Shown here: piece by piece, positions 2,551 through 46,683 of the stretch
How the letters are laid out: each line of letters opens with the position of its first letter
Position numbering within the stretch: position 1 is the stretch's first letter
Assembly: GCA_964639725.1 (NCBI GenBank)
Contig: CAZXFB010000007.1
Coordinates: forward strand, 58,177-122,176
Source of the DNA: an uncultured Rikenellaceae bacterium
GTDB lineage: Bacteria > Bacteroidota > Bacteroidia > Bacteroidales > VadinHA17
Reading direction: 5' to 3'
DNA: 64,000 nt
Program-made: the position numbers and the translations under genes
Notes under the pieces: model-generated
Databases searched by the model: none
The model's input: only the letters and a program-made list of their open reading frames with translations
Told to the model about the DNA's origin: nothing

Positions 2551-3798
2551 TCATAAATAATCTTTTTCACTAAGTGATATCTTGAGGTTACCCTGCCCTG
2601 TAGTAATCCATAGGTTACCCGGTTTATTCTCGAAGATGTATGGATAAGCGATAACATTATTCTTTTTGATGACCGCCGAAACAGCAGTGCATCTTGCTAC
2701 AATATGAGGCGTGCTCCAGTTTTTACCATCATCTGCAGAAAACATGATTGCAAGTTCCTCCCTGTGGTTACTGACAGGTACCTCCGACCAGTTGCTATCT
2801 CCACCAGTCAGTGTATATGATGTTTTTCCTTCAGGATAATAACGGTTCCAGATTAGAACAAGTCTACCGCTCTTTAATCTAAACAGATTACCAGGTGCGG
2901 AGCTTGCATCAATTCCTGTTGCTTTGAAATTTTTCCATGTAAGGCCCTCATTGTCGGAAAAAGCTTCCCAGAAGTAGCCCCAGTTTGTCCGCATCAACAT
3001 CCATATCTGGCCATCCCTGAGCTGTTCGATTGTGGCTTCTGTTACGCCCCCATGATGACCAACACCCCCAAGATCAATTATGTTACTGCGAATCCAGCTT
3101 TTTCCATCATCTTTTGAAGTATAAGTTAATACTGAATGACGACCAGGATTATGCTGCATCATCATTGAAGTAAACACAATACTGCCATCGTTTGTTTCAA
3201 TGATATCGCGGATTGATCCGGTCCATTCATCATGAAGTTTCTGAAGGTCCTGCCATGTTTTTCCTCCATCGAGACTTCTGACTGCGTAAGTAGGAAGGAT
3301 TGCTCCCGGGGAATCATGAATAGTCGTCTGCCAATTCCAATTTGACAATTCAGATGTATTATAGAATGCAAGAATAATTATTCCCTGTTTTGTTTGAATC
3401 AAAGCTCTTTCACTGATTGTGTATTTACCTGTTTCAGGAAAGACATTATACGAAGTCCATGAATAGCCTTCATCGTTACTAATAAGACATTTAGTTCCCT
3501 CGGCAGTAAGAATTGATCCATCAGTTAACCTGATAAATGGTCCTGTTTTGAGGCCAATAATTTCGAAAACATTCTCAGGTATCCATAAACCAGTTTTTGA
3601 AATTTTCCAACCCTCAGGAACATACGGATCATACTTACTGACTATCTCTTCCGGCTTCCTGCAACTAAAAAGAAATAAGAGTGACAAAAAGATCCATAAA
3701 ATCCTCACAGGGAAGAATTTAAAACTGATATATTCCTGGTTATGAACAGATTTCAAGTCAACCAGAAGCCATATTTGATGAGTTACAGGTAAAACCAT
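2551..3798 (-). CDS. Lipoprotein, Asp-box sialidase-fold protein
   Basis: Five Asp-boxes: SNDEGYSW, SLDGGKTW, SKDDGKSW, SDNEGLTW and SADDGKNW. Lipobox LFLFSC. The ATG at 3798 overlaps the upstream gene by 16 nt. A GTG at 3708 would give MRILWIFLSLLFLFSC and is a plausible alternative start. Confidence 0.7.
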   Translation of the reverse strand: MVLPVTHQIWLLVDLKSVHNQEYISFKFFPVRILWIFLSLLFLFSCRKPEEIVSKYDPYVPEGWKISKTGLWIPENVFEIIGLKTGPFIRLTDGSILTAEGTKCLISNDEGYSWTSYNVFPETGKYTISERALIQTKQGIIILAFYNTSELSNWNWQTTIHDSPGAILPTYAVRSLDGGKTWQDLQKLHDEWTGSIRDIIETNDGSIVFTSMMMQHNPGRHSVLTYTSKDDGKSWIRSNIIDLGGVGHHGGVTEATIEQLRDGQIWMLMRTNWGYFWEAFSDNEGLTWKNFKATGIDASSAPGNLFRLKSGRLVLIWNRYYPEGKTSYTLTGGDSNWSEVPVSNHREELAIMFSADDGKNWSTPHIVARCTAVSAVIKKNNVIAYPYIFENKPGNLWITTGQGNLKISLSEKDYL

Positions 3799-4856
3799 TC
3801 AGAAGGCAGACTTTTGAGTTTTAGCGAGAGACCGCCTTTATAGTTAAAATATGTAATAAGTGCCCTGTTTCCTATCCAGGTAACAGCAGGATAAGCCCAT
3901 GAATCGTCTGCTATCTCTTCGATGTTCCTGAAATTCACCCATGTTTCACCTTCATCCTTTGAAATTGCTGAGGTTAATGGATTACGACTTTTTGCACCCG
4001 GATTATTGTTCCAGATAGCAAGAATATCGCCTGAATCAGGAATCCTGCTTATTGAAACAGGGGCAGCCGTCCCGAGTAGTGTGGTTGGTACAGGTTCGCT
4101 CCATGTTTCTCCACCATCAGAAGAAACACTTTTATACTGACAACCTAGACCAGTACGCATTAGCATCATTACTTTTCTGTCTTTCAGTTCAATACAGGCA
4201 TTCTCAAAACAGGTTCCGGCTGTGGGTTTTATAAATTGACTATCTCTCCAGGTCTCGCCTTCATCATCAGATATTACACAATAACAGAAACCACCTTGCC
4301 AGGCTTCAAGAAGTATCCTGCCATTACTGAGTCGCAATGATCTTCCGTTTGTAAGACCTGTATATTTCCCATCGGGACTCATCTGCTTTTGATTGATCCA
4401 TGTTTTACCTTCATCAGATGAAGTGCGCATCATAATGCGGCAATCAGTAGCTTCAGTGTTCTTTTGCAGATAAAACAGAGCCAGATTCCCGTTCTTCAAT
4501 CTTAGAAAATTAACTTCCATAACGTTACATCCACCATCATTTTCAATCAGTGTGTATTTATCTCCCCATGAACGGCCACTATCAATGGAAATTTTCCCTG
4601 AAATCCTTGCAGGACCATGATCAGCGCCATTCCCGGCATAAAATTCAGTCCACCCAAGTAATAAGGAGCCATCTTTTAAAGGAATTATTGCAGCTTCACT
4701 GTTCCGTGTATTCTGAGGGCCCACAGGTGCCACAAAATATTCATAAATATCACTTTCAGAACCTTTGACAGAACCTTTATCTCTTTCTTGTCGATTCTTA
4801 CAGCCAGAATTTAACAGGATGGAGACTATAAAACAGATGGAGAATATCTTGTTCAT
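3783..4856 (-). CDS. Lipoprotein, sialidase-like glycosidase (GH33-like, TRNSE variant of FRIP)
   Basis: Lipobox LLNSGC. TRNSEAAIIPL sits at the FRIP position. Asp-boxes SIDSGRSW, SSDEGKTW, SDDEGETW, SSDGGETW and SKDEGETW. Also MLMRTG, SRNPL, SRIPDSGD and WAYPAV. Confidence 0.75.
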   Translation of the reverse strand: MNKIFSICFIVSILLNSGCKNRQERDKGSVKGSESDIYEYFVAPVGPQNTRNSEAAIIPLKDGSLLLGWTEFYAGNGADHGPARISGKISIDSGRSWGDKYTLIENDGGCNVMEVNFLRLKNGNLALFYLQKNTEATDCRIMMRTSSDEGKTWINQKQMSPDGKYTGLTNGRSLRLSNGRILLEAWQGGFCYCVISDDEGETWRDSQFIKPTAGTCFENACIELKDRKVMMLMRTGLGCQYKSVSSDGGETWSEPVPTTLLGTAAPVSISRIPDSGDILAIWNNNPGAKSRNPLTSAISKDEGETWVNFRNIEEIADDSWAYPAVTWIGNRALITYFNYKGGLSLKLKSLPSEWFYL

Positions 4857-5866: not shown

Positions 5867-5938
5867 ATTTTAAGAGATTAATAATAAATTAATATGAGTA
5901 TCGGTTATCAATAATAAATTTAAAACAATTGGTTATGA

Positions 5939-6075
5939 GATTCCTCGCTAACGCTCGGAATGACAGTATTTTATGTGACATAGGGGAAAGCAGAGGCGAT
6001 TCGCTGAGCGAATCGCCTCTGCTTTCCCCACAAACAACCAACATCGCATGTCATTCCGAGCGCCAGCGAGGAATC
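5939..6075. repeat. Nested-palindrome intergenic element, copy 1
   Basis: Outer arms GATTCCTCGCTAACGCTCGGAATGACA (5939-5965) and TGTCATTCCGAGCGCCAGCGAGGAATC (6049-6075) are complementary at 25 of 27 positions. The inner hairpin (5983-6029) is perfect: GGGGAAAGCAGAGGCGATTCGC-tga-GCGAATCGCCTCTGCTTTCCCC, a 22-bp stem. Confidence 0.75.
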
Positions 6076-6207
6076 CCCCTCACCTATTTTAATAGTATGA
6101 ATTAATCCCATTTCAGTTATTATTCATTCCAGATACTCATTTAAATTAATTATGTAATATTCAGAAAAACTGTTCTAAAAAAATCTTACAATACTATCAT
6201 TCATGTG

Positions 6208-7464
6208 TTATAAAGAAAGCTTGAACCACCTTATATTTGAGACCATTTTCTCATAGCACCAGAAAGCTATATAAACTGAGTTATCAGGAAGAATTGTAAT
6301 ACATGGTGCTCCGAATTTAAGTTCATTAAAATCTTTCACCATGTTATCTGTTTTATCAGTCAGGCTCTTTTCCTGAGTACCCCAGAGCGGTATATCTGTT
6401 TCATTCACCCATTTATTATCTTCAATCCGCACAATAGTGATCCAAAGTCCAGACCTGTCCATTCTCCTGTAAACTGCAAGAATTTTATTGCCAGATAATC
6501 CTGCAATTGCCATTGTTTCTCCTTTAATTTCTGTTGAAGCAGGGGGCATCCAGCTCTTACCCCCATCATTGCTAATAGTATATTGGTTTGGCAGATCTTT
6601 AGCCTCACTTTCATTATAAGCCCATGCAATACCTAATAAAACTCCTTTTGAAAGTTCAATAATCTTACTTTCCCATAAAATGATTTTTTCATTACTTCTG
6701 TTCATGACATCCATGAATTCCGGCCATGATTTACCTTTATCGTTGGAAACCAGAGCTATCATCTTCATACCATTGGGACAATAACCGTCCCATCCACGCC
6801 ATGTTGAAGTTGGCCAGAGCCACCTGCCATCACTTAATGGAACAAGAGGACTACACATTTCAAATGATGGTCCAACAAGCGGAGGAGTGATTTTTTCAGG
6901 TTCGGTCCACGTGTATCCATTATCAAAAGAACCGGCAATAAGCAAGTCTGTCGGAACAAAGCCTAGGTTTTCCGCATTTGCCAATCCATCATCAGGATGC
7001 GATTCACGGTGGCATCTTGTTATATTGGCAATAACAGAACCATCAGGCATAGCTGAAATACGGGCATAATCAGAGACCAGGATCTCTGATTTCTTTTTTA
7101 TCAAACTGATGGGTTCACTCCAGGTCTCCCCCATATCCTTTGAACGAACTACATAGGTATCAGAATTAACTGATTCGAATGCTTCCCCGATAGCAAAAGT
7201 TGCCAGCATTTCACCATTGGCTAACACAGCCACTGAGGGGAAATATGCCTGCCTGCTAACTACATGCGTTTTAGGATTACGATAGATTATTCCGCTTCTG
7301 ATATTTAACTTATGAATATCATTACTTTTTATCTGCCTTTCATTTTGGTTGTTACCGGACTCATTGAAACTTCTACACCCAGGGAATAATATCATCTGAA
7401 AAAGTAATGCCAGGCAGAAAATAATTCTGGCAGATTCTGATAGAGATTCAAATTTTGATTTCAT
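6208..7464 (-). CDS. Lipoprotein, Asp-box beta-propeller protein (family D, secreted copy)
   Basis: Leader with lipobox ILFPGC. Asp-boxes SKDMGETW, SFDNGYTW, SNDKGKSW and SNDGGKSW. Long identical blocks are shared with 12136-13245, for example GRWLWPTSTWRGWDGYCPNGMKM and FNELKFGAPCI. Confidence 0.7.
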   Translation of the reverse strand: MKSKFESLSESARIIFCLALLFQMILFPGCRSFNESGNNQNERQIKSNDIHKLNIRSGIIYRNPKTHVVSRQAYFPSVAVLANGEMLATFAIGEAFESVNSDTYVVRSKDMGETWSEPISLIKKKSEILVSDYARISAMPDGSVIANITRCHRESHPDDGLANAENLGFVPTDLLIAGSFDNGYTWTEPEKITPPLVGPSFEMCSPLVPLSDGRWLWPTSTWRGWDGYCPNGMKMIALVSNDKGKSWPEFMDVMNRSNEKIILWESKIIELSKGVLLGIAWAYNESEAKDLPNQYTISNDGGKSWMPPASTEIKGETMAIAGLSGNKILAVYRRMDRSGLWITIVRIEDNKWVNETDIPLWGTQEKSLTDKTDNMVKDFNELKFGAPCITILPDNSVYIAFWCYEKMVSNIRWFKLSL

Positions 7465-7500
7465 CTGTTTAATTTCAGTAGTGTCCGACCAAAAGCAAGA

Positions 7501-7642
7501 GATTCTTCTCTACGCTCAGAATGACAAGTGTTTATAGAGTTAGTGAGTAGAGGGAGGTGGTTGGAGGTACAGCCTCCAACCACCTCCCTCTTAACAACAC
7601 AAGTATCTGTCATTCTGAGCGAAACAAAGTGAAGCGAAGAAC
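7501..7642. repeat. Nested-palindrome intergenic element, copy 2
   Basis: Left arm GATTCTTCTCTACGCTCAGAATGACA (7501-7526). The right arm TGTCATTCTGAGCG... (7608-7642) is partly degenerate. The inner hairpin (7550-7590) is perfect: GAGGGAGGTGGTTGGAGG-tacag-CCTCCAACCACCTCCCTC, an 18-bp stem. Confidence 0.7.
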
Positions 7643-8072
7643 CGAGCTTTGCGAGCTCACCAAAGGTAATCTCATGCTAATTTCAAATATTATCCGTTTA
7701 ATAATGATTTAATTTACAAAAATATGCAATATTGAATCATCTGCTAACTGATTTTTAAAAACCTGATATTATGACTTTTATTTGATGAATACCACTGATT
7801 TCTTATTCCTTATTCAGATCAGAAAATATTCAGCATAAAACTATGTCCTGATTATCCTGCTTTTTTAAAATCTTACTCCCTTATTATACAAATTTAAGAT
7901 ACAATGGTTATTAAATAATAATACAATTCATCTCATTTATAATATTTTCATACAGAAATAAAGCTATAAGCAATCAACTAAAAGAATCTATGACTTAAAT
8001 AGCAAAATTGAATCATTTTCTATATCAGCTGGCAAACCATTATGGTATTCTATCAGCATATAAATAACTTAG

Positions 8073-9251
8073 CTATTTATATACTAATCCTATAGTAAGC
8101 CTGTTAATATCAATTGAAGAGTTGTTTTTATCAGCACGGTTCCAATAACCAAGGAAAATATTTTGTCCTGAAAAATGTATGGCAGTATAACAGAATGACC
8201 CATTTGGGTCATCCTCAATAACTTTTGTATTGGTCCAGGTATTTCCATCATCCTTTGAGATGGAAATGCATAGGGGTGTCCGTTTCTGGTTAGTGCCATT
8301 TCTATTCCAGGCTAAAATTAAATCACCTGTTGAAGGAATTCTGGATATGGATGCTGGTGAGAGCGGAGATACAATATTGCTCCTCTCAGCAGGAGTCCAT
8401 GTCAAACCTTTGTCTTTAGATATTGATTTATACTGTGCTCCTTTGTTTGTGCGGATAAACATGAAAATATCTTCGTTTTTTAGCTCGACTACTCCAGGTT
8501 CCTGGGTAAGTACGTTTTCATAGTTAGGGACTTCACTACCAGATGTCCAGGTTAATCCCGCATCATCTGAATAATATGTACACAGGGTGAAATATTCAGC
8601 CCATCCATTATACCCTGGTTTATGAACAGCAACGGGAATCAGAATCCGACCATTTTTAAGCTGTATTACCCGGTCATTATTGACGACAAAATAACCAGAT
8701 TTATCTGTGATACATGGAAACGGGTCACTCCATGTAGAAGCTTCATCCTTTGAGATCCTCATCATGGGAATACAATCAGTGGTTGAATTTTTCCTCAGGT
8801 AAAATAAGGCTATCTCACCATTCTTTAACCTCAGTAAGGAGACTGACATTACATTCATTGTACCTTCCTGCTTAACTATTGTAATATCTTCAGGGCTCCA
8901 TGTTCTGCCTCCATCATCCGAATATCTTCCTGCGAGGTATGCACTAGCATTATCGCCACCTGAAGTACCCGTATAATGGCTATATATAAATAGTATTCTG
9001 CCATTATTCAAAGTAATAAAATCACCTTCGCTGTTTCTTGGATTATCAACACCTGGTAAGATTCTGAATAAGGTTCTTTCAGTTACTAAAGTATCTCCGG
9101 CATCATCTTTTCTATATTCGAAATGCGAAACTATTTTCTGATCTGATCTATCTTTTCCCCGGGAGTATCCCAGGAGGCCAGAGAGAAGGAAAATAATAAT
9201 AAATGAATAGAGGAATAACCATTTGCGGGAATATGTTTCAGTTTCTGCCAT
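8073..9251 (-). CDS. Sialidase-like glycosidase, family A (PRNSEGD variant)
   Basis: NPRNSEGDFITLNNGRILFIYSHYTG, SDDGGRTW, GTMNVMSVSLLRLKNGEIALFYL, DCIP, CITDK, SRIPSTGDL, QKRTPL, SKDDGNTW and FCYTAIHF. N-terminal membrane or signal anchor. Confidence 0.8.
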   Translation of the reverse strand: MAETETYSRKWLFLYSFIIIFLLSGLLGYSRGKDRSDQKIVSHFEYRKDDAGDTLVTERTLFRILPGVDNPRNSEGDFITLNNGRILFIYSHYTGTSGGDNASAYLAGRYSDDGGRTWSPEDITIVKQEGTMNVMSVSLLRLKNGEIALFYLRKNSTTDCIPMMRISKDEASTWSDPFPCITDKSGYFVVNNDRVIQLKNGRILIPVAVHKPGYNGWAEYFTLCTYYSDDAGLTWTSGSEVPNYENVLTQEPGVVELKNEDIFMFIRTNKGAQYKSISKDKGLTWTPAERSNIVSPLSPASISRIPSTGDLILAWNRNGTNQKRTPLCISISKDDGNTWTNTKVIEDDPNGSFCYTAIHFSGQNIFLGYWNRADKNNSSIDINRLTIGLVYK

Positions 9252-12135: not shown

Positions 12136-13245
12136 TCATATAACCAGTTTAAACCACCTAATATTGGATACCATTTTTTCGTAGCACCAGAATGCAATAA
12201 AGATGGAATTATCAGGGAGAATTGAAATACAGGGAGCACCAAATTTCAGCTCATTAAAATCCTGCACCATATTATCAGATTTATATAATAAACTTTTCTC
12301 CTGGGCACCCCACAAAGGGAAATCTTTTTCGTTGATCCAGATATCCTCATCCAATCGAGCGATAGTTGCCCACAGACCTGGTTTATCCATTCTTCGGTAA
12401 ACACATAGCAGACTTCCATCGGACAATTCAGTTATGGCCATTGTCTCACCATGAATTTCAGCCGAAGTCGGAACCAGCCATGTTTTACCCCCATCACGAC
12501 TTACCGAGTAATGGTTGGTTAAATCTTCACCATTCTTTTCATCATAAGTCCAGGCTACTGCTAACAGAAGTCCATTTTTTAACTCAATAATTTTACTTTC
12601 CCAGTAAATTATCTTATCGTCGCTTCTATTCATCACATTCATGTATTCCGGCCATGTTTTGCCCTGGTCACTGGAAACAAGTGCTACCATTTTCATCCCA
12701 TTAGGGCAATATCCATCCCAACCGCGCCAGGTTGATGTTGGCCATAACCATCGACCATCGCGCAAAGGCAATATTGGGCAACACTGTTCAAATGAAGGTC
12801 CAATGAGAGGAGCAGTAATTAATTCAGGGATATCCCATGTTTTTCCATAATCGTTGGATCGGACCAGAAACAAATCAGTGGGAACCATTCCAATGTTTTC
12901 CGGATTTGCGAGCCCCTCTTCGGGATGCAAATCACGATAACTTAGCACTACATTGGCCACCAGCCTACCATTTGGTAATGCGGTTATACGGGCAAAATCG
13001 GATGACAAATTATTTGTATCCACAGTAAACAGAGGAACAGGATCACTCCAAGTTTCACCCATATCATCTGACCGGGAGATAAAAGTATGCAAATTTACAG
13101 CTTCAAAGGCCTCCCCAATCGCCATTGAGGCAACCATTTCACCATTATCCATAATTGCAACAGACGGAAAATAGGCTTGTCTGCTTAGAACATGAGGTTT
13201 GGGATTTCGGTAAATAAGACCTGTTCCAATGATGAAATTATCCAT
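12136..13245 (-). CDS. Asp-box beta-propeller protein (family D, leaderless and presumably cytoplasmic copy)
   Basis: Starts MDNFIIGTGLIYRNPKPHVLSRQAYFPSV, exactly where the mature part of 6208-7464 begins (GIIYRNPKTHVVSRQAYFPSV). Asp-boxes SDDMGETW, SNDYGKTW, SSDQGKTW and SRDGGKTW. Confidence 0.7.
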   Translation of the reverse strand: MDNFIIGTGLIYRNPKPHVLSRQAYFPSVAIMDNGEMVASMAIGEAFEAVNLHTFISRSDDMGETWSDPVPLFTVDTNNLSSDFARITALPNGRLVANVVLSYRDLHPEEGLANPENIGMVPTDLFLVRSNDYGKTWDIPELITAPLIGPSFEQCCPILPLRDGRWLWPTSTWRGWDGYCPNGMKMVALVSSDQGKTWPEYMNVMNRSDDKIIYWESKIIELKNGLLLAVAWTYDEKNGEDLTNHYSVSRDGGKTWLVPTSAEIHGETMAITELSDGSLLCVYRRMDKPGLWATIARLDEDIWINEKDFPLWGAQEKSLLYKSDNMVQDFNELKFGAPCISILPDNSIFIAFWCYEKMVSNIRWFKLVI

Positions 13246-13288
13246 AATAATATATTAAAAGGTTTCTAAGATAATTTTGATATAAAGT

Positions 13289-14578
13289 CTAAGTTTGTTT
13301 TGATGCTTTCACGAGTAATAGAAGGATTGCGTTGGCCCCAAATATTAATGCCAACATTCGAAATATCATGTTAAAATCTATGTTCGCATCCAATAATATG
13401 CCACTTAGATAAATCCCTATACCACCCATTATACAACCTGCCAGATTAAGAATTCCATAACCTGTAGCTCTGTATCGAGGATCTGAAACCATGCATAATA
13501 CCGGCATCATATTTGGTTCATTAAATGCCAGTGTCAGAAAAATGAAAATAAATCCAAAAATAGCTAAAGGCAATATACTTGTTGTCCCTGACACAAATAT
13601 GGCAGGAGCAGCAGCACATAGTCCAATTACAGGAACGTAGATCCTTGCCCGTAAATTCTTACGACTCCACCGGTCAGCCCAGGCGCCACCAAGTAAAACA
13701 CCTATAAAACCTGCAATACTTGGGTATGCAGTAGCATAAATACTGGCCATTCCCTGGGATAAATTGAATTCTCCTTTAAAATATGTGGGCAACCAACCGA
13801 TAAGAACCCAACCTATTCCCATTACTCCAAAATAAACTAATAACAGAATAAAGGAACTATTGCTGAAGAGGCTCTTCAGGGCATCATGAAAGCGTACCTT
13901 TTCTACTTTTCTTTCTTTTAGTTCATCAGCAGGTTCATATGTACCATGAGGAAGATCCCGTAACAGAGGAACCAGGACTGCTAATGCGTATACAACACCT
14001 ATGATCCCATAAAGCTTGAAGGGAAATGTCCAATCGTTTCTTTCAGACAACCAGCCTCCAGTAAAGCTTAGTGTTTGACCTGCCAATATACCGGCAATAT
14101 GGAGTCCTGTTGCAAATGACCGAGTCGGTCCACGATGATAATCTGCAATAAGTGCAAGAGCAGCAGGGATATAACATGCCTCGCTTAATCCCATTAATAC
14201 CCGTGTAAAAAGTAACTGGTCAAATGTCTTTGCCAAACAGGTACTCCATGTGACTATTGACCATACAAACAGGCTCAGGATGATCACATTGCTTCGTTTA
14301 AACCTGTCTGCGAGGAAACCTGCAAATGGGCTTACAATACCATATACCCACAGGAATACGGAAGTAAGTAGTCCGAACTGTGCATCTGTGAGAGGCATTG
14401 CATCATTTAATGAACCTCTCATATTGGTGATCATTACCCGAACAATATAATTCAGGCAACCAACTACCATAAGTAATATCACAATCAGCCAGGCCCGGGA
14501 AGGAAGTTTTGCATCAGAAGGTGAGGTTATCGAAGGAATAAAAGCCAGATTCCTATTATCGCCCTGGTTTAAACTCAT
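13289..14578 (-). CDS. MFS transporter
   Basis: Hydrophobic throughout, with multiple predicted TM segments. The loop motif GFLADRFKRSNV resembles the MFS signature G-x-L-x-D-R-x-G-R-R. Confidence 0.8.
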   Translation of the reverse strand: MSLNQGDNRNLAFIPSITSPSDAKLPSRAWLIVILLMVVGCLNYIVRVMITNMRGSLNDAMPLTDAQFGLLTSVFLWVYGIVSPFAGFLADRFKRSNVIILSLFVWSIVTWSTCLAKTFDQLLFTRVLMGLSEACYIPAALALIADYHRGPTRSFATGLHIAGILAGQTLSFTGGWLSERNDWTFPFKLYGIIGVVYALAVLVPLLRDLPHGTYEPADELKERKVEKVRFHDALKSLFSNSSFILLLVYFGVMGIGWVLIGWLPTYFKGEFNLSQGMASIYATAYPSIAGFIGVLLGGAWADRWSRKNLRARIYVPVIGLCAAAPAIFVSGTTSILPLAIFGFIFIFLTLAFNEPNMMPVLCMVSDPRYRATGYGILNLAGCIMGGIGIYLSGILLDANIDFNMIFRMLALIFGANAILLLLVKASKQT

Positions 14579-14673
14579 CAGTAAAAAAATAAAATGATTC
14601 TTAATATTTTAACTTCACTCTTCACATCTAAATGAGCTGAGATATAGATTTCTTATTCAGATTTTTAGCCGAA

Positions 14674-15822
14674 TTATTGATAGATCCAATCAATGTCTAT
14701 TCGTCTGATAACTGATCCCATGTTTGCCCAATTTGAATAACCCAATAATAAATATTTATCAGTAAAATGTATTGCTGAATAACAGAAGGTTCCTCCAGGG
14801 TCAACTTCAAGGTTTTTAATTTTCTCCCAGTTAATACCTTCATCTTTTGAAATAGCTATAGTCAGTGGAGTGCGTTTTTGATCAACACCATTATTATTCC
14901 ATACCATCAGAAGATCACCCGTTGAAGGAATTCTTGCAATGGAAGCAGGTGAACAGGGAGATTTTATCTCACTCCTCCCAACAGCACTCCATGAATCCCC
15001 TCCATCCATGGAATAAGAAACATACTGAACCCCTGAAGTAGTCCTCATAAACATAAAAATTCTGCCATCTTTCAATTCAATTAATCCTGGTTCCTGGGTT
15101 ATCACACTGTCAGGATTTGCTGCTTCCTTACCTGCCTTCCATGTTCTGCCGTTGTCATCTGAATAATAGCTCCAGATGCTTCCAATTCTCTCTTTAAAAG
15201 AGTTATGCAGTGCAACAGCCAGGAGAATACGTCCATTTTGCAATTGAATAACCCTGTTATTATTTAACACAAAATAACCAACTTTATCAGTTATACAGGG
15301 TTGCGGATCGCTCCAGGTTTCAGCTTCATCATCCGATATCCGGATTATTGGAATACAGTCGTTTTCTGCATTTATCCTCAAATAGAACAATGCAATCTCA
15401 CCATTCTTCAATCTGAGCAGTGAAACCGACATAACATTCATTTTTCCTTCCTGCTCAATGATCTTAACACTCTCTTTTGTCCAGGATTTACCATTATCAG
15501 TTGAGTATCTTCCTGCAAGATATGCGTTGCCGTTATCATCACCTGAAGACCCGGTATAATGAGTATAAATAAAAAGTATCCTGCCATCTTTAAGAGTAAC
15601 AAAATCTCCTTCACTATTTCGTGGATTATCAGTTCCGGGATCAAGCCGGAGCATAACATTTTTATTATTTGTTCCTGCTTTACTTGTTTCTGGTTGGCTA
15701 TTGCAGCCTGAAATAATAAGAATGAGCATGCTATAGGCAATAGATTTTACAATAGCTGAAAATCCAATCTTATTATAAATTCGTAAAGCCCTTAAGGTCC
15801 AATAGTTTTTAAAATCTTCCAT
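14674..15822 (-). CDS. Sialidase-like glycosidase, family A (lipoprotein)
   Basis: DNPRNSEGDFVTLKDGRILFIYTHYTG, STDNGKSW, MNVMSVSLLRLKNGEIALFYL, CITDK, ARIPSTGDL, QKRTPL, SKDEGINW and FCYSAIHF. Lipobox IISGC. Confidence 0.8.
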   Translation of the reverse strand: MEDFKNYWTLRALRIYNKIGFSAIVKSIAYSMLILIISGCNSQPETSKAGTNNKNVMLRLDPGTDNPRNSEGDFVTLKDGRILFIYTHYTGSSGDDNGNAYLAGRYSTDNGKSWTKESVKIIEQEGKMNVMSVSLLRLKNGEIALFYLRINAENDCIPIIRISDDEAETWSDPQPCITDKVGYFVLNNNRVIQLQNGRILLAVALHNSFKERIGSIWSYYSDDNGRTWKAGKEAANPDSVITQEPGLIELKDGRIFMFMRTTSGVQYVSYSMDGGDSWSAVGRSEIKSPCSPASIARIPSTGDLLMVWNNNGVDQKRTPLTIAISKDEGINWEKIKNLEVDPGGTFCYSAIHFTDKYLLLGYSNWANMGSVIRRIDIDWIYQ

Positions 15823-41920: not shown

Positions 41921-43012
41921 CTATTTATATATCCAGTCTAGGTCCATTCTTACCAGAGTCGATCCCCAGTGAAACCAGTCTGAGTAGCATAATAATACAT
42001 AATTATCAATAAAATGGAGAGCAGGATAGCAATAGACACCATCTGGTTTGTCGGCAAGGACCTTATTTTTCATCCATGTTTTCCCATCATCTTTTGAAAC
42101 AGCAATATTTAATGGGGTTCGTTTCTGGTTGAGTCCATTATCATTCCATACCATAAGCAGATCGCCCGTTGAAGGGATTCTTGTTATAATCGCAGGGGAA
42201 CAGGGAGATTTAATGTTGCTGGGTTCAACAGCACTCCATGTTTCGCCTTTATCCTTAGAATAAGAGAAATATTGAACTCCGGCAGTTGTACGTATATACA
42301 TAAGTATTTCACCATTATTTAACTCTACCATACCAGGCTCCTGTGTAACAATGGCAGCTGGATTTTCTACTTCCTTACTTGCTTTCCAGTTTCGACCATT
42401 ATCATCAGAATAATAACTCCACAAACGTCCCACTGCAGCAGCTTTTGTTTCACCCGGGCTCTGATGCATTGCAACAGCTAATAAAAGCCGGCCACTTTTA
42501 AGTTGAATTACGCGATTATTATTTAGCACAAAATAAGCTGCTTTATCTGTTATACAGGGTAAAGGATCACTCCATGTTTTAGCTTCATCATTCGATAAAC
42601 GTATTAATGGAATACAATCTGTTTCAGAATTCTTTTTAAGATAGAACAAGGCTATTTCACCATTCTGTAACCTCAGTAGTGAGACTGACATGACATTCAT
42701 AGTTCCTTCCTGCCCGACAATTTTCACATCCTCTTCTGACCATGTTTTACCTTTATCGTCTGAGTATCTTCCTGCCAGAAAGGCACTTGCATTATCATCC
42801 ATTGAAGTACCGGTATAATGGCTATAAATAAAAAGAATTCTGCCATCCTTCAAAGTGATAAAGTCACCTTCACTATTTCGCGGATTATCAGCAACAGGGA
42901 GAAGCTTAAGTACATCTTCCATTCCCTGAGCTACTTCATTACTCTTACTGGCAGACCTGTTCCCGCAACCATAACCTATTAGTATTAACAAACAGAGAGC
43001 TGATATTTTCAT
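41921..43012 (-). CDS. Sialidase-like glycosidase, family A (lipoprotein), tandem copy 4
   Basis: DNPRNSEGDFITLKDGRILFIYSHYTG, SDDKGKTW, GTMNVMSVSLLRLQNGEIALFYL, CITDK, TRIPSTGDL, QKRTPL, SKDDGKTW and YCYPALHF. I chose Met at 43012 (MKISALCLLILIGYGC). The longest ORF reaches 43084. Confidence 0.8.
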   Translation of the reverse strand: MKISALCLLILIGYGCGNRSASKSNEVAQGMEDVLKLLPVADNPRNSEGDFITLKDGRILFIYSHYTGTSMDDNASAFLAGRYSDDKGKTWSEEDVKIVGQEGTMNVMSVSLLRLQNGEIALFYLKKNSETDCIPLIRLSNDEAKTWSDPLPCITDKAAYFVLNNNRVIQLKSGRLLLAVAMHQSPGETKAAAVGRLWSYYSDDNGRNWKASKEVENPAAIVTQEPGMVELNNGEILMYIRTTAGVQYFSYSKDKGETWSAVEPSNIKSPCSPAIITRIPSTGDLLMVWNDNGLNQKRTPLNIAVSKDDGKTWMKNKVLADKPDGVYCYPALHFIDNYVLLCYSDWFHWGSTLVRMDLDWIYK

Positions 43013-43099
43013 AATATCAGAGAAATGAATACAGGCATCAATATGTGCTGTTCCTGGTTCGCAAATGGCAGAGATCTTTTTCATTTTCTTCTATTTATT

Positions 43100-44200
43100 T
43101 TAATTATAAATCCAATCAAGACTTATTCTAGCTACGTCCAAAACTGCCCAATTTTTCCCTTTAGATGTGCTGCCGGCAGTATAGCCCAATAAAACATTAT
43201 CCCCGGTAAAATGAATTGCAGTATAGCAATAACGCCCTTCAGGATTCTCTTCAATACTTTTAATATTATTCCATGTGATTCCTTCATCTCTTGAAATGGC
43301 AATTTTTAATGGAGAACGTATCTGGTTTAAACCATTGTCATCCCAAACCAGAAGTAAATCACCGGTAGAGGGTATTCTTGCTATTGATGCAGGAGCAACC
43401 GGAGAATTTATTTTACTTCTTTCTGAAGGACTCCAGGATTCTCCTTTATCTTTTGAATAGGATATATACTGTACTCCCGCATTAGTGCGTATTAACATAA
43501 ATATATCACCATTTTTCAGCTCAACCAGAGCCGGTTCCTGAGTCAGTACATTATCCGGATTAGGGACTTCAGCACTGGACCTCCAGCTTCGACCATTATC
43601 ATCAGAATAGTAACCCCACAGACGATCTGTATAGAGTTTTGATTCTTCTGAAACAGCAAAAAGAATCCGTCCGTTACTTAATTGGATAACATGATTATTG
43701 TGAAGGCAAAAGTAACCTTTCTTATCAGTGATGCATGGTCTGGGATCGCCCCAGCTAACAGCTTCATCATCTGATATTCTAATAATGGGAATACAGTCTG
43801 TTTCAGAATTTTTCCTTAAATAAAACAACGCTATTTCGCCATTTTGTAACCTGAGAAGTGATACAGACATTACATTCATTGTACCTTCCTGGTCAACAAT
43901 TTTCTTATCATCGGTGGTCCAGCTTTTACCCTGGTCACTTGAGTATCTCCCAGCCAGGTATGCATTCGCATTGTCATTATCTGAAGAACCAGTATATCTG
44001 GTAAAAACAAATAATAACCTTCCATCCTTAAGAGTAATAAAGTCACCCTCACTATTTCGTGGATTATCAAGACCTGACTCGAGTCTGAGAACAATCTCCT
44101 TTCCACTTGCTGAACTTTTATTTTCTCCCTGTCTTGTCTTACACCCTGAATTGATAAGTATTAATATTAAAATAACAAATATCTTAATCACTCCTGCCAT
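43100..44200 (-). CDS. Sialidase-like glycosidase, family A (lipoprotein), tandem copy 3
   Basis: DNPRNSEGDFITLKDGRLLFVFTRYTG, SSDQGKSW, GTMNVMSVSLLRLQNGEIALFYL, CITDK, ARIPSTGDL, SRDEGITW and YCYTAIHF. I chose Met at 44200 (MAGVIKIFVILILILINSGC). The longest ORF reaches 44251. Confidence 0.8.
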   Translation of the reverse strand: MAGVIKIFVILILILINSGCKTRQGENKSSASGKEIVLRLESGLDNPRNSEGDFITLKDGRLLFVFTRYTGSSDNDNANAYLAGRYSSDQGKSWTTDDKKIVDQEGTMNVMSVSLLRLQNGEIALFYLRKNSETDCIPIIRISDDEAVSWGDPRPCITDKKGYFCLHNNHVIQLSNGRILFAVSEESKLYTDRLWGYYSDDNGRSWRSSAEVPNPDNVLTQEPALVELKNGDIFMLIRTNAGVQYISYSKDKGESWSPSERSKINSPVAPASIARIPSTGDLLLVWDDNGLNQIRSPLKIAISRDEGITWNNIKSIEENPEGRYCYTAIHFTGDNVLLGYTAGSTSKGKNWAVLDVARISLDWIYN

Positions 44201-44267
44201 TTTAAATATTACAAATGTGTTTGATTTGCGGTTTATTAATAAGTTTGGCATTTTACAAATAAATCAA

Positions 44268-45356
44268 TTATTTATATATCCAGTCTATGCTTATTTTTTT
44301 TACGGTAACTCCTGTTGCTGTCCAGTCGAAATAGCCTAAAAGGAGATCATTACCGGTAAAATGAATTGCGCTGTAGCAATATGACCCTTGGGGATCATTT
44401 TCAAGAATCTTATTATTAATCCAGGTTTTTCCATCATCTTTAGAAATCGCCAGATTAAGAGGAGTTCTGTTCTGATCCACACCATTATCATTCCAAACAA
44501 CAAGAATATCTCCAGTTGACGGAATTCTTGCCATTGATGCAGGAGAGCAGGGTGATTTAAGTGAACTGGGTTCAACCTGGCTCCATGTTTCTCCTTTATC
44601 TTTTGAATATGAGAAATACTGAACCCCTGCAGTAGTCCGGAGAAACATCAGGATATCACCATTTTTTAATTCAATTAAGCCAGGTTCCTGAGTGATAATC
44701 TGGCCTGGATTTGGGACTTCAGAACTAGACTTCCATGTCCTTCCATTATCATCTGAATAATAATTCCAGATCCGGCCTATTCTATAAAAGGTTTTATCAC
44801 CGGGGATTCCATGCATTGCAACAGCAAGCATAAGTCTGCCGTTCTTTAATTGGATCACCCTGTTATTATTAAGTACAAAATAACCCTCTTTATCAGTTAT
44901 ACATCTTGAAGGTTCACTCCAGGTTTTTGCTTCATCGGTTGAAATCCTTATCATCGGGATACAATCAGTAGTAGAATTCTTCTTCAGGTAGAAGAATGCT
45001 ATCTCACCATTTTGTAACCTGAGGAGAGAGACTGACATAACATTCATTGTTCCTTCCTTGTCAAGAATTTTCGTATCAGCCGTTGTCCAGGTCTTTCCAT
45101 TATCGGATGAATATCTTCCTGCAAGAAAGGCACTGGCATGATCATCATTTGAAGTTCCTGTGTAATGGGAGTATACATATAGAATTCTACCATCCTTCAG
45201 GGTAATAAAGTCACCCTCGCTATTACGGGGATTGTCAGGGCCTGTTGTGAGTTTAAGCACATCCTCAACTCCAGAGCTCTCGCTTTTGATTCCGGCAGGT
45301 TTATTACGGCAACTTCCGCTGATTACAATAAGGAAACAGAGTGCCAATATTTTCAT
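44268..45356 (-). CDS. Sialidase-like glycosidase, family A (lipoprotein), tandem copy 2
   Basis: DNPRNSEGDFITLKDGRILYVYSHYTG, SSDNGKTW, GTMNVMSVSLLRLQNGEIAFFYL, CITDK, ARIPSTGDI, SKDDGKTW and YCYSAIHF. I chose Met at 45356 (MKILALCFLIVISGSC). The longest ORF reaches 45446. Confidence 0.8.
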   Translation of the reverse strand: MKILALCFLIVISGSCRNKPAGIKSESSGVEDVLKLTTGPDNPRNSEGDFITLKDGRILYVYSHYTGTSNDDHASAFLAGRYSSDNGKTWTTADTKILDKEGTMNVMSVSLLRLQNGEIAFFYLKKNSTTDCIPMIRISTDEAKTWSEPSRCITDKEGYFVLNNNRVIQLKNGRLMLAVAMHGIPGDKTFYRIGRIWNYYSDDNGRTWKSSSEVPNPGQIITQEPGLIELKNGDILMFLRTTAGVQYFSYSKDKGETWSQVEPSSLKSPCSPASMARIPSTGDILVVWNDNGVDQNRTPLNLAISKDDGKTWINNKILENDPQGSYCYSAIHFTGNDLLLGYFDWTATGVTVKKISIDWIYK

Positions 45357-45525
45357 AAAAACAGATGGATGAATAAGAGTGGCAATCTTGAACATGTTAT
45401 TAAGGTTTTTTAAATTCATTTTATTCGATTTAAAGTTAATAATCAAAGAATCCTAGTTCGTACCCGGAATATTGCTTAATGACAGTAAGTGATTACCCTG
45501 CTCACTGCTCCCAACTTACTATTCA

Positions 45526-46683
45526 CTATTTATAAATCCAATCCAAACTTAGTTTTGTTATCTGGGTAACCTGCAGACCGGTACGCTTAGGGCGGTTCCC
45601 CGCACAATGTCCTAACAAAACATCTTTCTCTGTAAAATGTATGGCAATATAACAATACCATCCATCGGGGTCAGTTTCGATGTTTTTGATCTTTTCCCAG
45701 GTTGTGCCTTCGTCCTTAGATATTGCCACTGTGAGTGGTGTACGTTTGCCTTTAATTGCCGGATCATCTCCTCCATTATTGTTCCAAACCAGCAAAAGAT
45801 CGCCTGTAGAAGGGATTCTTTCTATTGATGCCGGAGATACCGGGGATTTAATATTGCTTCGTTCAACAGGGCTCCAGGTCTCCCCCTTATCTTTTGAATA
45901 TGACTTACACTGTACTCCTGCATCTGATCTTATTAGCATCAATATATCTCCGTTCTTTAGTTCAACCAGACCTGGTTCCTGAGTCAGTACTTTTTCAGGA
46001 TTTGAGACTTCAATCCCGGATTTCCAGCTGCGCCCATTATCATCTGAATAATAGCTCCATAAACTTCCCTTATTTAATTGTGATCCTTCCTGAGTATTAT
46101 AAAGATTTACTGCCATCAGAATACGTCCATTCTGTAACTGGATTACACGATTGTTATTAAGTACAAAATAACCTGCTTTATCTGTTATACATGGTATAGG
46201 ATCGCTCCAGGATTTCGCATCATCATTTGAAAACCGAACCATCGGTATACAATCTGAATCTGAGTTTTTCTTCAAATAGAACAAAGCTATCTCATCATTT
46301 TGCATTCTTAAAAGTGATACTGACATAACATTCATTGTACCTTCCCTTTCAACAATTTTCACATCTTCGTTGGTCCATGTTTTTCCACCATCAGATGAAA
46401 ATCTTCCGGCAAGAAATGCGGGATCATTATCTCCACCGGAAGCACCAGTATAGTGGGTATAAATGAAGAGAATACGATTATCCTTTAAAGCTATAAAGTC
46501 TCCTTCACTGTTACGTGGATTATCAAGACCTGGCTCAAGCCTAAGAGCAATCTCCCTGCCCTTATCCGGACTACCACATCCTGTATTCACCAGGATCAAC
46601 AAAACAGCTACTAATAAGATTATTAAAGGTATTGAAAGAGAGTTGCCGGAATCTGAATCGTGAAGTTTTATTTTTTTGTCCAT
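45526..46683 (-). CDS. Sialidase-like glycosidase, family A (lipoprotein), tandem copy 1
   Basis: DNPRNSEGDFIALKDNRILFIYTHYTG, SSDGGKTW, GTMNVMSVSLLRMQNDEIALFYL, CITDK, ERIPSTGDL, GKRTPL, SKDEGTTW and YCYIAIHF. Lipobox LVNTGC. Confidence 0.8.
   Translation of the reverse strand: MDKKIKLHDSDSGNSLSIPLIILLVAVLLILVNTGCGSPDKGREIALRLEPGLDNPRNSEGDFIALKDNRILFIYTHYTGASGGDNDPAFLAGRFSSDGGKTWTNEDVKIVEREGTMNVMSVSLLRMQNDEIALFYLKKNSDSDCIPMVRFSNDDAKSWSDPIPCITDKAGYFVLNNNRVIQLQNGRILMAVNLYNTQEGSQLNKGSLWSYYSDDNGRSWKSGIEVSNPEKVLTQEPGLVELKNGDILMLIRSDAGVQCKSYSKDKGETWSPVERSNIKSPVSPASIERIPSTGDLLLVWNNNGGDDPAIKGKRTPLTVAISKDEGTTWEKIKNIETDPDGWYCYIAIHFTEKDVLLGHCAGNRPKRTGLQVTQITKLSLDWIYK

Follow-up and report, generated by a model that had tools for sequence, protein, structure and literature searches.

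Two probable MITEs with SRM-like arms and perfect inner palindromes beside a BNR_2 gene of an uncultured Rikenellaceae bacterium

The locus described here lies in a window of 64,000 nt, the whole stretch of DNA that was analysed, and holds at least 10 BNR_2 (sialidase-fold) genes. One of them, at 6208-7464 on the minus strand (Pfam BNR_2, E=1e-12), is a bystander between two palindromic elements. An earlier note had taken this gene for a duplicate of the one at 12136-13245. The two are indeed paralogues, but with a protein identity of 66% the pair is old and does not reflect a recent duplication. The same note had described nested arms and perfect stems on both sides of the gene, which are present where it placed them; the true elements are longer. 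Homology to other copies reaches 5894-6141 for element 1 and 7476-7706 for element 2, and the family alignments continue for about 40-60 nt past the arms, up to conserved termini. Neither element holds an open reading frame of 80 aa or more.

Element 1 (5894-6141, 248 nt) belongs to the class termed el1. It is flanked by a target-site duplication (TSD), TAAATTAAT, read from the sequence at 5885-5893 and repeated at 6142-6150 with a 9/9 match. Its left terminal inverted repeat (TIR), ATGAGTATCGGTTATCAATAATAA at 5894-5917, pairs with the right one, ...TTATTATTCATTCCAGATACTCATT at 6117-6141, and both are kept across el1-class copies, the termini of which read ATGAGTATCGG... and ...GATACTCAT. Within these ends lie two SRM-like hairpin motifs, the left arm at 5939-5965 (minus-strand reading TGTCATTCCGAGCGTTAGCGAGGAATC) and the right arm at 6049-6075 on the plus strand (TGTCATTCCGAGCGCCAGCGAGGAATC), each of 27 nt and together 93% complementary. 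The unit of the left arm also flanks GIY-YIG genes at other loci. Between the arms is a perfect palindrome at 5983-6029 with a 23-bp stem (5983-6005/6007-6029) and a loop of a single nucleotide, which is G in element 1 and C in the copies L102, L192 and L217.

Element 1 is 82-85% identical to the copies L022 and L102 across 250-285 nt, and the neighbouring genes are unrelated. Twelve further el1-class copies were found in metagenome contigs; this number counts only the palindromic matches of a scan with a 17-mer of the stem, which otherwise gave mostly single-strand chance matches. The el1-class copies elsewhere likewise bear flanking direct repeats of 8-9 bp.

Element 2 (7476-7706, 231 nt) belongs to the el2 class, and the nhmmer profile of this family matches 7461-7708 with E=1e-51. 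Its termini, 5'-CAGTAGTGTCCGA...TTTAATAATG-3', are common to about 50 related copies among the loci compared; in the class as a whole, the conserved ends are CAYTRNTGTCCG... on one side and ...CGGACANYARTG or the variant ...AAACGGAT on the other. The flanking duplication, G/ATTTAATTT, matches at 8/9 positions between GTTTAATTT at 7467-7475 and ATTTAATTT at 7707-7715. The left arm at 7501-7526 reads TGTCATTCTGAGCGTAGAGAAGAATC on the minus strand, and the right arm at 7608-7642 on the plus strand consists of TGTCATTCTGAGCG, the insertion AAACAAAGTGAA and GCGAAGAAC. The asymmetry of this right arm is an insertion of 10-12 nt typical of the whole family, and the core arms (7513-7526/7608-7621) form 14 perfect base pairs. 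In locus L023, the motif that immediately follows the GIY-YIG gene has exactly the sequence of the family consensus arm, AGATTCTTCGCTTCGCTCAGAATGACA. The inner perfect palindrome (7549-7591) has a 19-bp stem (7549-7567/7573-7591) of the main stem class and a 5-nt loop. A 26-nt insertion at 7642-7667 in the right flank, within which a small hairpin (GAGCT..AGCTC) is found, is shared only with the copies L024 and L092 and is a gap in most copies, as seen from blastn blocks.

The position of element 2 relative to the BNR_2 gene was also revised. The 36 nt that had been given as its distance from the start codon shrink to 11 nt when the full element is measured from the ATG at 7464. A pattern scan found the box TATTTTTG at 7717-7724 on the minus strand, 1 nt outside the element, which perfectly matches the Bacteroidetes-type -7 promoter consensus. 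From its sequence, this box is likely the original promoter of the gene at 6208-7464, now parted from the ATG by element 2, and because the element lies between the promoter-like box and the ATG, it is probably transcribed. Element 2 is probably an insertion that disrupts a promoter in a polysaccharide-utilisation locus, and it might affect BNR_2 expression. A scan for sigma-70 promoters gave no more matches than shuffled sequences, and the sigma-70 model is inapplicable to Bacteroidota.

The flanking duplications recur in the family. With exact boundaries set for 37 el2-class copies, 9 carry perfect 9-bp flanking duplications and 17 match at 8/9 positions or better; mismatched pairs of left and right flanks, used as a control, give 0.08% and 1.1%, respectively. 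The duplicated sequences are 94% A/T, and the boundary model of the class is a 9-bp TSD with CA...TG termini. The nested pattern of arms and stem occurs in at least 116 stretches from many MAGs, beside unrelated genes, in Bacteroidota, Armatimonadota, Chloroflexota, Acidobacteriota, Verrucomicrobiota, Firmicutes and Bifidobacterium. The impression that the arm repeat is widespread in Bacteroidota-like genomes was therefore correct and extends to many phyla; confinement of the arms to these two places, under which the earlier note would have given up its reading, is not what was found. Several copies may share one MAG (JAPLDU01, JAJFVL01, CAXXEH01), and all 46 scorable copies are intergenic. 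Both families number dozens of copies, scattered over unrelated intergenic positions in environmental Bacteroidales. Inside the 64-kb window, the 14-nt core of the arms occurs at four places only, namely the four arms, against 0.37 expected by chance. The nested pattern had no match in viral contigs, and blastn of element 2 found none in the plasmid and phage collections.

Each inner palindrome belongs to a conserved stem class that is present in other genomes (GGAGGTGGTTGGMGGC for el2, GAAAGCAGAGGCGATTCGC for el1). The inner stems do differ between the two elements and both are perfect, as had been noticed; they are not, however, free in sequence. In element 1 the stem class is kept with compensated changes, for example GGGG/CCCC versus GGTG/CACC. 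Across 56 copies, double-sided changes were found at 15 of 16 inner-helix pairs, with 200 double-sided-change cells observed versus 42 in shuffles; only copies with stems of 13 bp or more had entered this set, and the percentage of paired positions is thereby inflated, though not the count of double-sided changes. One-sided (G-U) cells number just 0-5 per helix pair, so that pairing is almost exclusively Watson-Crick. Stems are perfect over 18 bp in 51 of 75 copies, and about one third of the copies carry mismatches. The expectation that other copies would keep perfect stems while changing in sequence thus holds for the majority and fails for the degenerate third.

The loops exist as reverse-complement pairs, such as ACCC and GGGT in two copies of one MAG, and the copy L087 is fully symmetrised into a perfect palindrome of 36 bp. 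The presence of loops in both orientations (flip-flop) indicates palindrome dynamics at the level of DNA rather than RNA structure. The inner palindrome is kept perfect as DNA, probably by template switching or recombination within it, which would also flip the loop, together with the spread of intact master copies; an RNA fold under selection is an unlikely reason. Quasipalindrome correction by template switching and small hairpin-loop inversions are known from E. coli mutagenesis and from chloroplast non-coding DNA. Such events, to which here the comparison of copies points, would explain stems that drift yet remain Watson-Crick-perfect, loops that read both ways and symmetrised flanks. Watson-Crick-only covariation is, however, equally expected from selection for the folding of both strands.

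All four arms read (T)GTC-ATTCY...RGAAT-C, an oriented hairpin with a 5' GTC tag and a C directly 3' of the palindrome. The NTS, CGTCATTCCCGCGMAVGCGGGAATCYRG, is a target of Ssn nucleases; cutting depends critically on its GTC, and binding on the C that follows the palindrome (Chenal et al., Nat Commun 2025, PMC11893778). Both critical features are kept in the arms. Ssn proteins are GIY-YIG single-strand DNA nucleases that act on NTS/SRM motifs; the motifs related to them usually border small GIY-YIG ssn genes, and binding and cutting, the latter a few nucleotides 5' of the motif, occur only on ssDNA (PMC11893778). The arms share the skeleton GTC + ATTCC...GGAAT + C with these motifs and are also oriented, intergenic, multicopy and present in several phyla, and they adjoin genes for GIY-YIG proteins of about 95 aa on both sides. 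They differ in that the interior of the arm is GAGCG-N3-GCGAG and not an extended GC stem; the arm's own stem is therefore limited to 5 bp, and the arm falls 2 substitutions short of the published pattern. The degenerate pattern HGTCWYN(0-2)YYVSBRHN(0-5)WNVSBRGN(0-2)RNCYNB has no strict match in the arms or in the whole window; when 2 substitutions are allowed, three of the four arms match and the right arm of element 2 still fails. By sequence, the arms closely resemble Ssn targets and may be a variant of the SRM/NTS motif. An inward-facing pair around a long palindrome, placed inside a MITE with TIRs and TSDs, is an arrangement absent from PMC11893778, the main text of which does not contain the string 'Bacteroid'. 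A full-text literature search for the arm sequence and related units returned nothing relevant.

The association of these arms with GIY-YIG genes was observed from both directions. Nine of the at least 116 loci with the nested pattern contain a GIY-YIG gene flanked by the arms, and the loci with ssn-like genes and flanking arms include L035, L078, L023, L007 and copies in JAIRVY01. When five GIY-YIG homologues chosen regardless of repeats were used as the starting point, the arms either framed the gene or formed a cluster immediately upstream of it at all seven loci reached. The proteins are single-domain, about 95 aa long, and assigned to GIY-YIG (PF01541) at the level of the Pfam domain. When 1050 ORFs of the loci were compared all against all, GIY-YIG was the only recurrent family directly adjoining the repeat, and no transposase appeared. 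The 64-kb window itself contains no GIY-YIG (ssn) gene. In Bacteroidales, a module of reverse SRM, short hairpin and forward SRM lies just 3' of ssn genes (L023 and the JAIRVY01 cassette); the JAIRVY01 cassettes are multicopy, and contig breaks fall inside their gene.

Taken together, elements 1 and 2 are probably non-coding, nearly palindromic MITEs of about 230-250 bp that were inserted separately and carry SRM-like arms around a palindrome. Two separate insertions, not the ends of one cassette, are indicated because each element has its own TIRs and its own 9-bp AT-rich TSD. A trans-acting transposase, perhaps of the DDE type, would insert such an element into AT-rich intergenic DNA through cuts staggered by 9 bp. 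The elements would represent two related families with different termini that landed independently, element 1 downstream of the BNR_2 gene and element 2 upstream, between its likely promoter and start codon. Both families would carry two inward-facing 27-nt motifs (GTC-ATTCY-loop-RGAAT-C) around a GC-rich perfect palindrome. Ssn cuts are predicted a few nucleotides 5' of the motif (TGTCATTC), on ssDNA only; it follows that the predicted cut sites in the MITEs lie at both borders of the inner palindrome, one per strand. No transposase partner was found in the 64-kb window. The search for an autonomous IS that shares these termini was negative there, in the 116 8-kb loci and in the plasmid and phage collections, and it revealed no extra copies of the el2 terminus in the window and the 8-kb loci.

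A different origin would follow if a GIY-YIG (Ssn) nuclease drove an ssDNA mobile element of which the SRM-palindrome-SRM module was the working part. The MITEs would then be non-autonomous ssn cassettes, not clients of a DDE transposase; each strand would be nicked at the palindrome borders, and hairpin-primed synthesis would regenerate and flip the palindrome, keep its stem perfect and let the module, like the ssn cassettes, multiply. The native position of the module just 3' of Bacteroidales ssn genes (L023, JAIRVY01), the multicopy JAIRVY01 cassettes with contig breaks inside the gene, the flip-flop loops and the symmetrised copy all fit such a system, and NTS-ssnA-NTS has been likened to an IS (PMC11893778). 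Clean 9-bp TSDs outside separate TIRs, however, point to staggered double-strand cuts by a transposase and are unexpected for a nuclease that acts only on ssDNA. The same module also occurs in two MITE classes with different termini, which suggests that it is cargo, and no Ssn is known to have a mobility function. This origin is thus considered unlikely; if true, it would mean a GIY-YIG-based ssDNA mobile element system in bacteria, with the Bacteroidales MITEs as its most successful non-autonomous derivatives. Equally doubtful are structured cis-regulatory RNAs, that is, 5'UTR or 3'UTR hairpins, mRNA stabilisers or unusual terminators under selection for their fold. Folding predictions give very stable structures (-72 to -103 kcal/mol, z-scores of -9 to -15), the inner helix covaries strongly, element 2 is probably transcribed from its place between the promoter-like box and the ATG, and effects on mRNA stability are known for other bacterial MITEs. 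Selection on RNA structure is nevertheless unlikely because the orientation of the copies to neighbouring or downstream genes is unbiased (29 vs 27), with all intergenic configurations occupied. G-U pairs, which an RNA helix would accept, hardly occur, the loops flip, one third of the copies are decaying, and the TSDs show that copies arose through insertion. The view that the hairpins are not ordinary intrinsic terminators was confirmed: there is no T-tract, and a terminator scan finds none at either element. On either strand, T-rich sequence comes before the stem and A-rich sequence after it. The proposed Rfam search was run and gave 0 matches in the window at gathering thresholds, and with E up to 10 only sub-threshold microRNA-like hairpin noise. 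As to the choice once offered between selection on structure and a templated origin, the former loses ground as far as RNA is concerned, and the latter gains some support from the Watson-Crick-only covariation, the loop flip-flop and the fully symmetrised copy.

The suggestion that the gene at 6208-7464 arrived within a composite cassette bounded by the two elements is largely refuted, and we give it very little credence. It drew on a single bracketed gene with a paralogue nearby, and a related population contig (L118) has a hipBA locus instead of the BNR gene beyond element 1. Yet the two elements are of different classes with unrelated termini, their TSDs are separate (TAAATTAAT versus TTTAATTT) with no common duplication outside the pair, and the paralogue is only 66% identical. 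The other copies, about 70 in number, stand alone beside unrelated genes, and none brackets a BNR gene. In L118, homology to the window begins exactly at the terminus at 6141 (only this junction was used, as the comparison also contains a 2-nt indel), which is expected from assembly across, or recombination between, identical MITE copies. REPINs, the REP doublets moved by RAYT, an IS200/IS605-like tyrosine transposase, are just as remote an explanation, although the short hairpin unit occurs widely here as inverted doublets, which in some genomes cluster in a BIME-like manner. Duplications of 9 bp are not a known feature of the single-strand 'peel and paste' transposition of IS200/IS605. The recurrent neighbour is a GIY-YIG gene and not one for a Y1 transposase. 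The arms also carry neither GTAG nor CGTC, the tags by which REP superfamilies are defined (PMC3733652), even though the same analogy is drawn in the discussion of the Ssn paper (PMC11893778). Integron attC sites (no integrase nearby, no R/L core sites) and retron msr/msd (no reverse transcriptase nearby) were considered and dropped, and TSD-bounded multicopy dispersal fits neither.

The probable MITEs described here resemble known bacterial ones, such as Correia/NEMIS of Neisseria, RUP of Streptococcus, ERIC/IRU and Nezha, in being small, non-coding and near-palindromic, with TIRs, TSDs, many dispersed intergenic copies and probable co-transcription with neighbouring genes. They differ from them in their termini (5'-CAYTRNTGTCCG in el2 and ATGAGTATCGG in el1), in the AT-rich TSD of 9 bp where Correia elements duplicate TA, and in their hosts, which are environmental Bacteroidales with no partner IS found in the window, the 8-kb loci or the plasmid and phage collections. 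Their cargo also differs, consisting of two nuclease-target-like hairpins and a flip-flopping perfect palindrome. In the neisserial intergenic mosaic elements (NIMEs; dRS3 flanking RS), hairpins of the ATTCC(C)...GGGAAT type similarly bracket intergenic repeat segments of 50-150 bp; NIMEs sit around surface or host-interaction genes, and dRS3 overlaps NTS. NIMEs, however, form arrays without defined TIRs or TSDs, and their intervening segments are not perfect palindromes. The REP/REPIN-RAYT system shares the inverted short-hairpin doublets that fold into a longer hairpin and the single small nuclease-type gene flanked by its own repeats; here there is no GTAG/CGTC tag, a GIY-YIG gene replaces the HUH-Y1 gene, and TSDs are present.

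Ssn nucleases and the repeats they target are a recent discovery, published in 2025 and drawn mostly from Neisseria and other Proteobacteria. The current work shows that a motif variant missed by the published pattern is common both in environmental Bacteroidales and in half a dozen or more further phyla. Among the Bacteroidales, bona fide MITEs with target duplications of 9 bp appear to spread it as their cargo, and it stands in pairs around a palindrome with the behaviour of a flip-flop hairpin. These elements may offer a testable model of repeat expansion and natural substrates for Bacteroidales Ssn enzymes. Copies of this kind also account for contig breaks in short-read assemblies of such genomes. 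The contigs retrieved for this locus are near-identical to the window and contain the elements, with no empty site among them. In the same population, contigs assembled from short reads end within both elements.

The two nested-palindrome elements on either side of gene 6208-7464 contain the arms and perfect inner stems that the earlier note had described. In element 1, the 27-nt outer arms (5939-5965 and 6049-6075) are 93% complementary and enclose a perfect 23-bp stem (5983-6005/6007-6029); in element 2, a perfect 14-bp arm core (7513-7526/7608-7621) surrounds a perfect 19-bp stem (7549-7567/7573-7591). Within the 64 kb, exactly four sites have the arm core TGTCATTCYGAGCG, all of them in these elements, where 0.37 would be expected, and folding z-scores are -9 to -15 against shuffled sequences on both strands. 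The sites had been placed correctly, but the true elements are larger, as conservation runs past the arms to inverted termini. By the boundaries of its class (el1), element 1 covers 5894-6141, with target-site duplications (TSDs) of perfect TAAATTAAT at both sides (5885-5893 and 6142-6150). Element 2 covers 7476-7706 by the exact boundaries of the el2 class, with TSDs GTTTAATTT (7467-7475) and ATTTAATTT (7707-7715). These are the sole copies found by a family profile search of the window.

The nested arm pattern was searched in one genome per GTDB species and matched at least 116 stretches, so the arms are not limited to the two window sites. The window-type layout is present in approximately 70 of the matches listed, nearly all in environmental Bacteroidales, Bacteroidia, Prolixibacteraceae or Lentimicrobiaceae MAGs. 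In 56 such copies aligned with their flanks, conservation extends 40-60 nt beyond the arms on each side, up to the inverted termini. Elements of the el2 class end in 5'-CAYTRNTGTCCG... and ...YARTG-3'. Of 37 copies of this class, 9 have the same 9 bases outside both ends and 17 agree at 8 or more of these positions, against 0.08% and 1.1% in a control of mismatched left/right pairs; these TSDs are 94% A/T. The el1 class is a second class with other termini (ATGAGTATCGGTTATCAATAATAA / ...GATACTCAT). Its copies at loci L022 and L102 share 82-85% identity with element 1 over 250-285 nt, beside unrelated genes, and metagenome contigs yielded 12 further copies, many of them flanked by AT-rich repeats of 8-9 bp. 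All 46 scorable copies are intergenic, across every gene configuration, and neither end preferentially faces the downstream gene (29 vs 27).

Small, lacking an ORF, and present as dispersed copies with terminal inverted repeats and target duplications, these elements are MITEs. In these features they behave like the classic bacterial elements Correia, RUP, ERIC and Nezha. The 9-bp staggered cut implies a transposase acting in trans; no partner transposase or IS was found in the window, the 116 listed 8-kb loci, or plasmid and phage collections. Element 2 carries a 26-nt insertion (7642-7667) with a small GAGCT..AGCTC hairpin, absent from most family members and common to copies from other MAGs (L024 and L092); it thus marks a MITE sub-lineage. 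Two copies (L117, approximately 3000-3350, and L009, right flank) lie within short tandem repeats, minisatellites of the ATGAATT type and the GATAACT/GATAATT type. After the right terminus of the el1-class copy in L169, both the 9-mer AAAAATATA and ATGAG, with which the element starts, are repeated; this suggests a longer duplication or insertion beside an older fragment.

Gene 6208-7464, on the minus strand, encodes a BNR_2 sialidase-fold protein. The window (1-64000) is a Bacteroidota polysaccharide-utilisation locus (for example at 48414-51641, 46882-48360, 41921-46683, 2551-4856, 8073-9251 and 12136-15822) with SusC-like, SusD, rhamnosidase and AraC regulator genes, and nearly all genes in it are on the minus strand; four BNR_2 paralogues stand in tandem at 41921-46683. 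It had been proposed that gene 6208-7464 arrived as a repeat-flanked cassette. This finds no support: the gene is one of at least 10 BNR_2 paralogues in this SusC/SusD locus, with only 66% identity to 12136-13245, and the different termini and separate TSDs of the two elements indicate independent insertions, for which reason a composite cassette was rejected. The full element 2 comes to within 11 nt of the start codon, not 36 nt as first measured. A pattern scan placed a candidate promoter box, TATTTTTG (7724-7717, minus strand), 1 base beyond the far TSD; it is a perfect match to the Bacteroidetes-type -7 consensus. From these two positions, the insertion probably parted the predicted promoter from the ATG, with a 231-nt hairpin leader now between them.

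The inner stems of the two elements are unrelated to each other, and both have relatives elsewhere: that of element 2 in the main class (GGAGGTGGTTGGMGGC-loop-complement), that of element 1 in the second (GAAAGCAGAGGCGATTCGC). The expectation of stems that always differ and are always perfect held in part. Pairing over 18 bp is perfect in 51 of 75 copies with a hairpin, but the stems fall into classes and the other 24 copies have 1-4 mismatches, so copies do decay. In the 56 aligned copies, both sides of the inner helix have changed at 15 of its 16 pairs (200 double-sided change cells against 42 in shuffles), and sliding the partner by one column destroys the helix. An RNA helix would tolerate one-sided G-U states; these are nearly absent (0-5 per pair). 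When elements were oriented by their asymmetric spacers, reverse-complement loops appeared at similar frequency (TTC 4/GAA 4, TTT 4/AAA 3, TGT 4/ACA 3). Two near-identical copies with the same spacer orientation in MAG JAJFVL01 (L060 968-1076 and L061 5301-5409) have the loops ACCC and GGGT, exact reverse complements, and thus a clean loop inversion. The copy in L087 has turned into a 36-bp perfect palindrome through gaining the same spacer on both sides. Selection on an RNA fold is argued against by the G-U rarity, the loop flips and the lack of orientation bias; together with the covariation and L087, these point to palindrome behaviour at the DNA level. The templated origin raised in the earlier note is therefore partly upheld by the double-sided changes, loop flips and L087; as for the mechanism, we infer that one palindrome arm would be copied onto the other and the loop flipped, by template switching or arm-to-arm recombination.

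The arms are associated with GIY-YIG genes. Among the matches listed, the arm pattern also occurs in Armatimonadota, Chloroflexota, Acidobacteriota, Verrucomicrobiota, Desulfobacterota, Firmicutes and a Bifidobacterium isolate, and outside the window-type layout the 27-nt unit takes other arrangements in these phyla. When all ORFs of the loci were clustered, a single small family was seen repeatedly to adjoin the unit directly in different phyla, namely 93-102-aa single-domain GIY-YIG proteins. In a repeat-blind test, loci were fetched for five GIY-YIG homologues from the protein database: TGTCATTCTGAG...GAAGAATCT-type units adjoin the gene at all seven loci, and at five of the seven a unit lies approximately 50 nt upstream of the ATG with AGATTCTTC...GCTCAGAATGACA just downstream. 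In L023, the unit after the GIY-YIG gene has a sequence identical to the el2-class consensus arm. The 64-kb window contains no GIY-YIG gene.

Ssn nucleases and their NTS/SRM repeats were described by Chenal et al. 2025 (PMC11893778), whose main text does not discuss Bacteroidota. Ssn binds the hairpin of its target (NTS, CGTCATTCCCGCGMAVGCGGGAATCYRG) exclusively in single-stranded DNA, and its cut falls a few nucleotides to the 5' side; cleavage depends critically on GTC, and binding on the C that follows the palindrome (PMC11893778). GTC, ATTCC...GGAAT and the C next to it are all retained in the window arms, and units flanking GIY-YIG genes are the arrangement reported for Ssn. The interior of the window arms, however, differs, and the published degenerate search pattern is missed by two substitutions; the arms are therefore termed SRM-like. 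They resemble the Ssn target motifs and are probably relatives of them. In the MITE core (arms plus inner palindrome) the TGTCA ends face inward, whereas in ssn cassettes they face outward; predicted cuts would thus lie at either edge of the inner palindrome, each on a different strand. A module of reverse SRM, short hairpin and forward SRM is found natively just 3' of Bacteroidales ssn genes, including a cassette with at least five copies in one MAG; the MITE core could plausibly derive from it. That the elements are instead a single-strand mobile system, with the module processed by a GIY-YIG nuclease, is quite improbable, as the clean 9-bp target duplications speak against it.

Among other known systems, REPINs were rejected, since a GTAG/CGTC tag is lacking and the gene found with the arms is no RAYT. 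A terminator scan was negative at both elements, in agreement with the note's view that they are not ordinary intrinsic terminators. No Rfam family matched the window at curated thresholds; lower scores brought up nothing but microRNA-like hairpin noise. Although MITEs of Bacteroidota have been catalogued in bulk, a MITE with an inward-facing, nuclease-target-like hairpin pair around a flip-flopping palindrome appears undescribed in the searchable literature.

Short-read contigs of the same population stop within the hairpins of both elements, L123 at window 7562 and L119-L122 at 5889-5949. The first ~30 nt of L001 (1-30) differ from window 7562-7591, inside the element 2 inner stem, probably by read-through into another copy. 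The sister-sample contig L118 (JGI 3300044991) shares 99.6% identity with the window over the sequence labelled p308 and element 1; from window 6142 onward, an HTH/HipA toxin-antitoxin pair (L118 1-2671) replaces the BNR gene. Its homology begins exactly at the element terminus, joined there to the hipBA locus. A second identical copy would give such a junction by recombination or assembly: in the one case a rearrangement mediated by the MITE, in the other a chimera assembled across two identical copies.

Several arrangements were observed near GIY-YIG genes. At least five copies of one unit are present in the Bacteroidales MAG JAIRVY01 (L025, L029, L051, L052, L077, L015, L072), with a GIY-YIG 3' end, a pair of reverse SRM-like motifs, an inner segment of 76 nt and one forward motif; on the right, the copies share one sharp boundary (..CTAATTTTTAACC). 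Contig breaks fall within the GIY-YIG gene, so the ssn cassette looks multicopy and mobile. In a Chloroflexia MAG (L078 1-900), 3-4 tandem units of ~220 nt, each an inverted arm-motif pair, lie directly upstream of a GIY-YIG gene and resemble a BIME or NIME. Beside ssn genes (L125 1438-1480, L127 1428-1482, L129 1437-1484), the loop of the SRM-like motif, flanked by the conserved halves TGTCATTCTGAGG and CGAAGAATCT, contains a further hairpin that varies and is perfectly paired, the theme of conserved flanks and variable perfect stem on a smaller scale.
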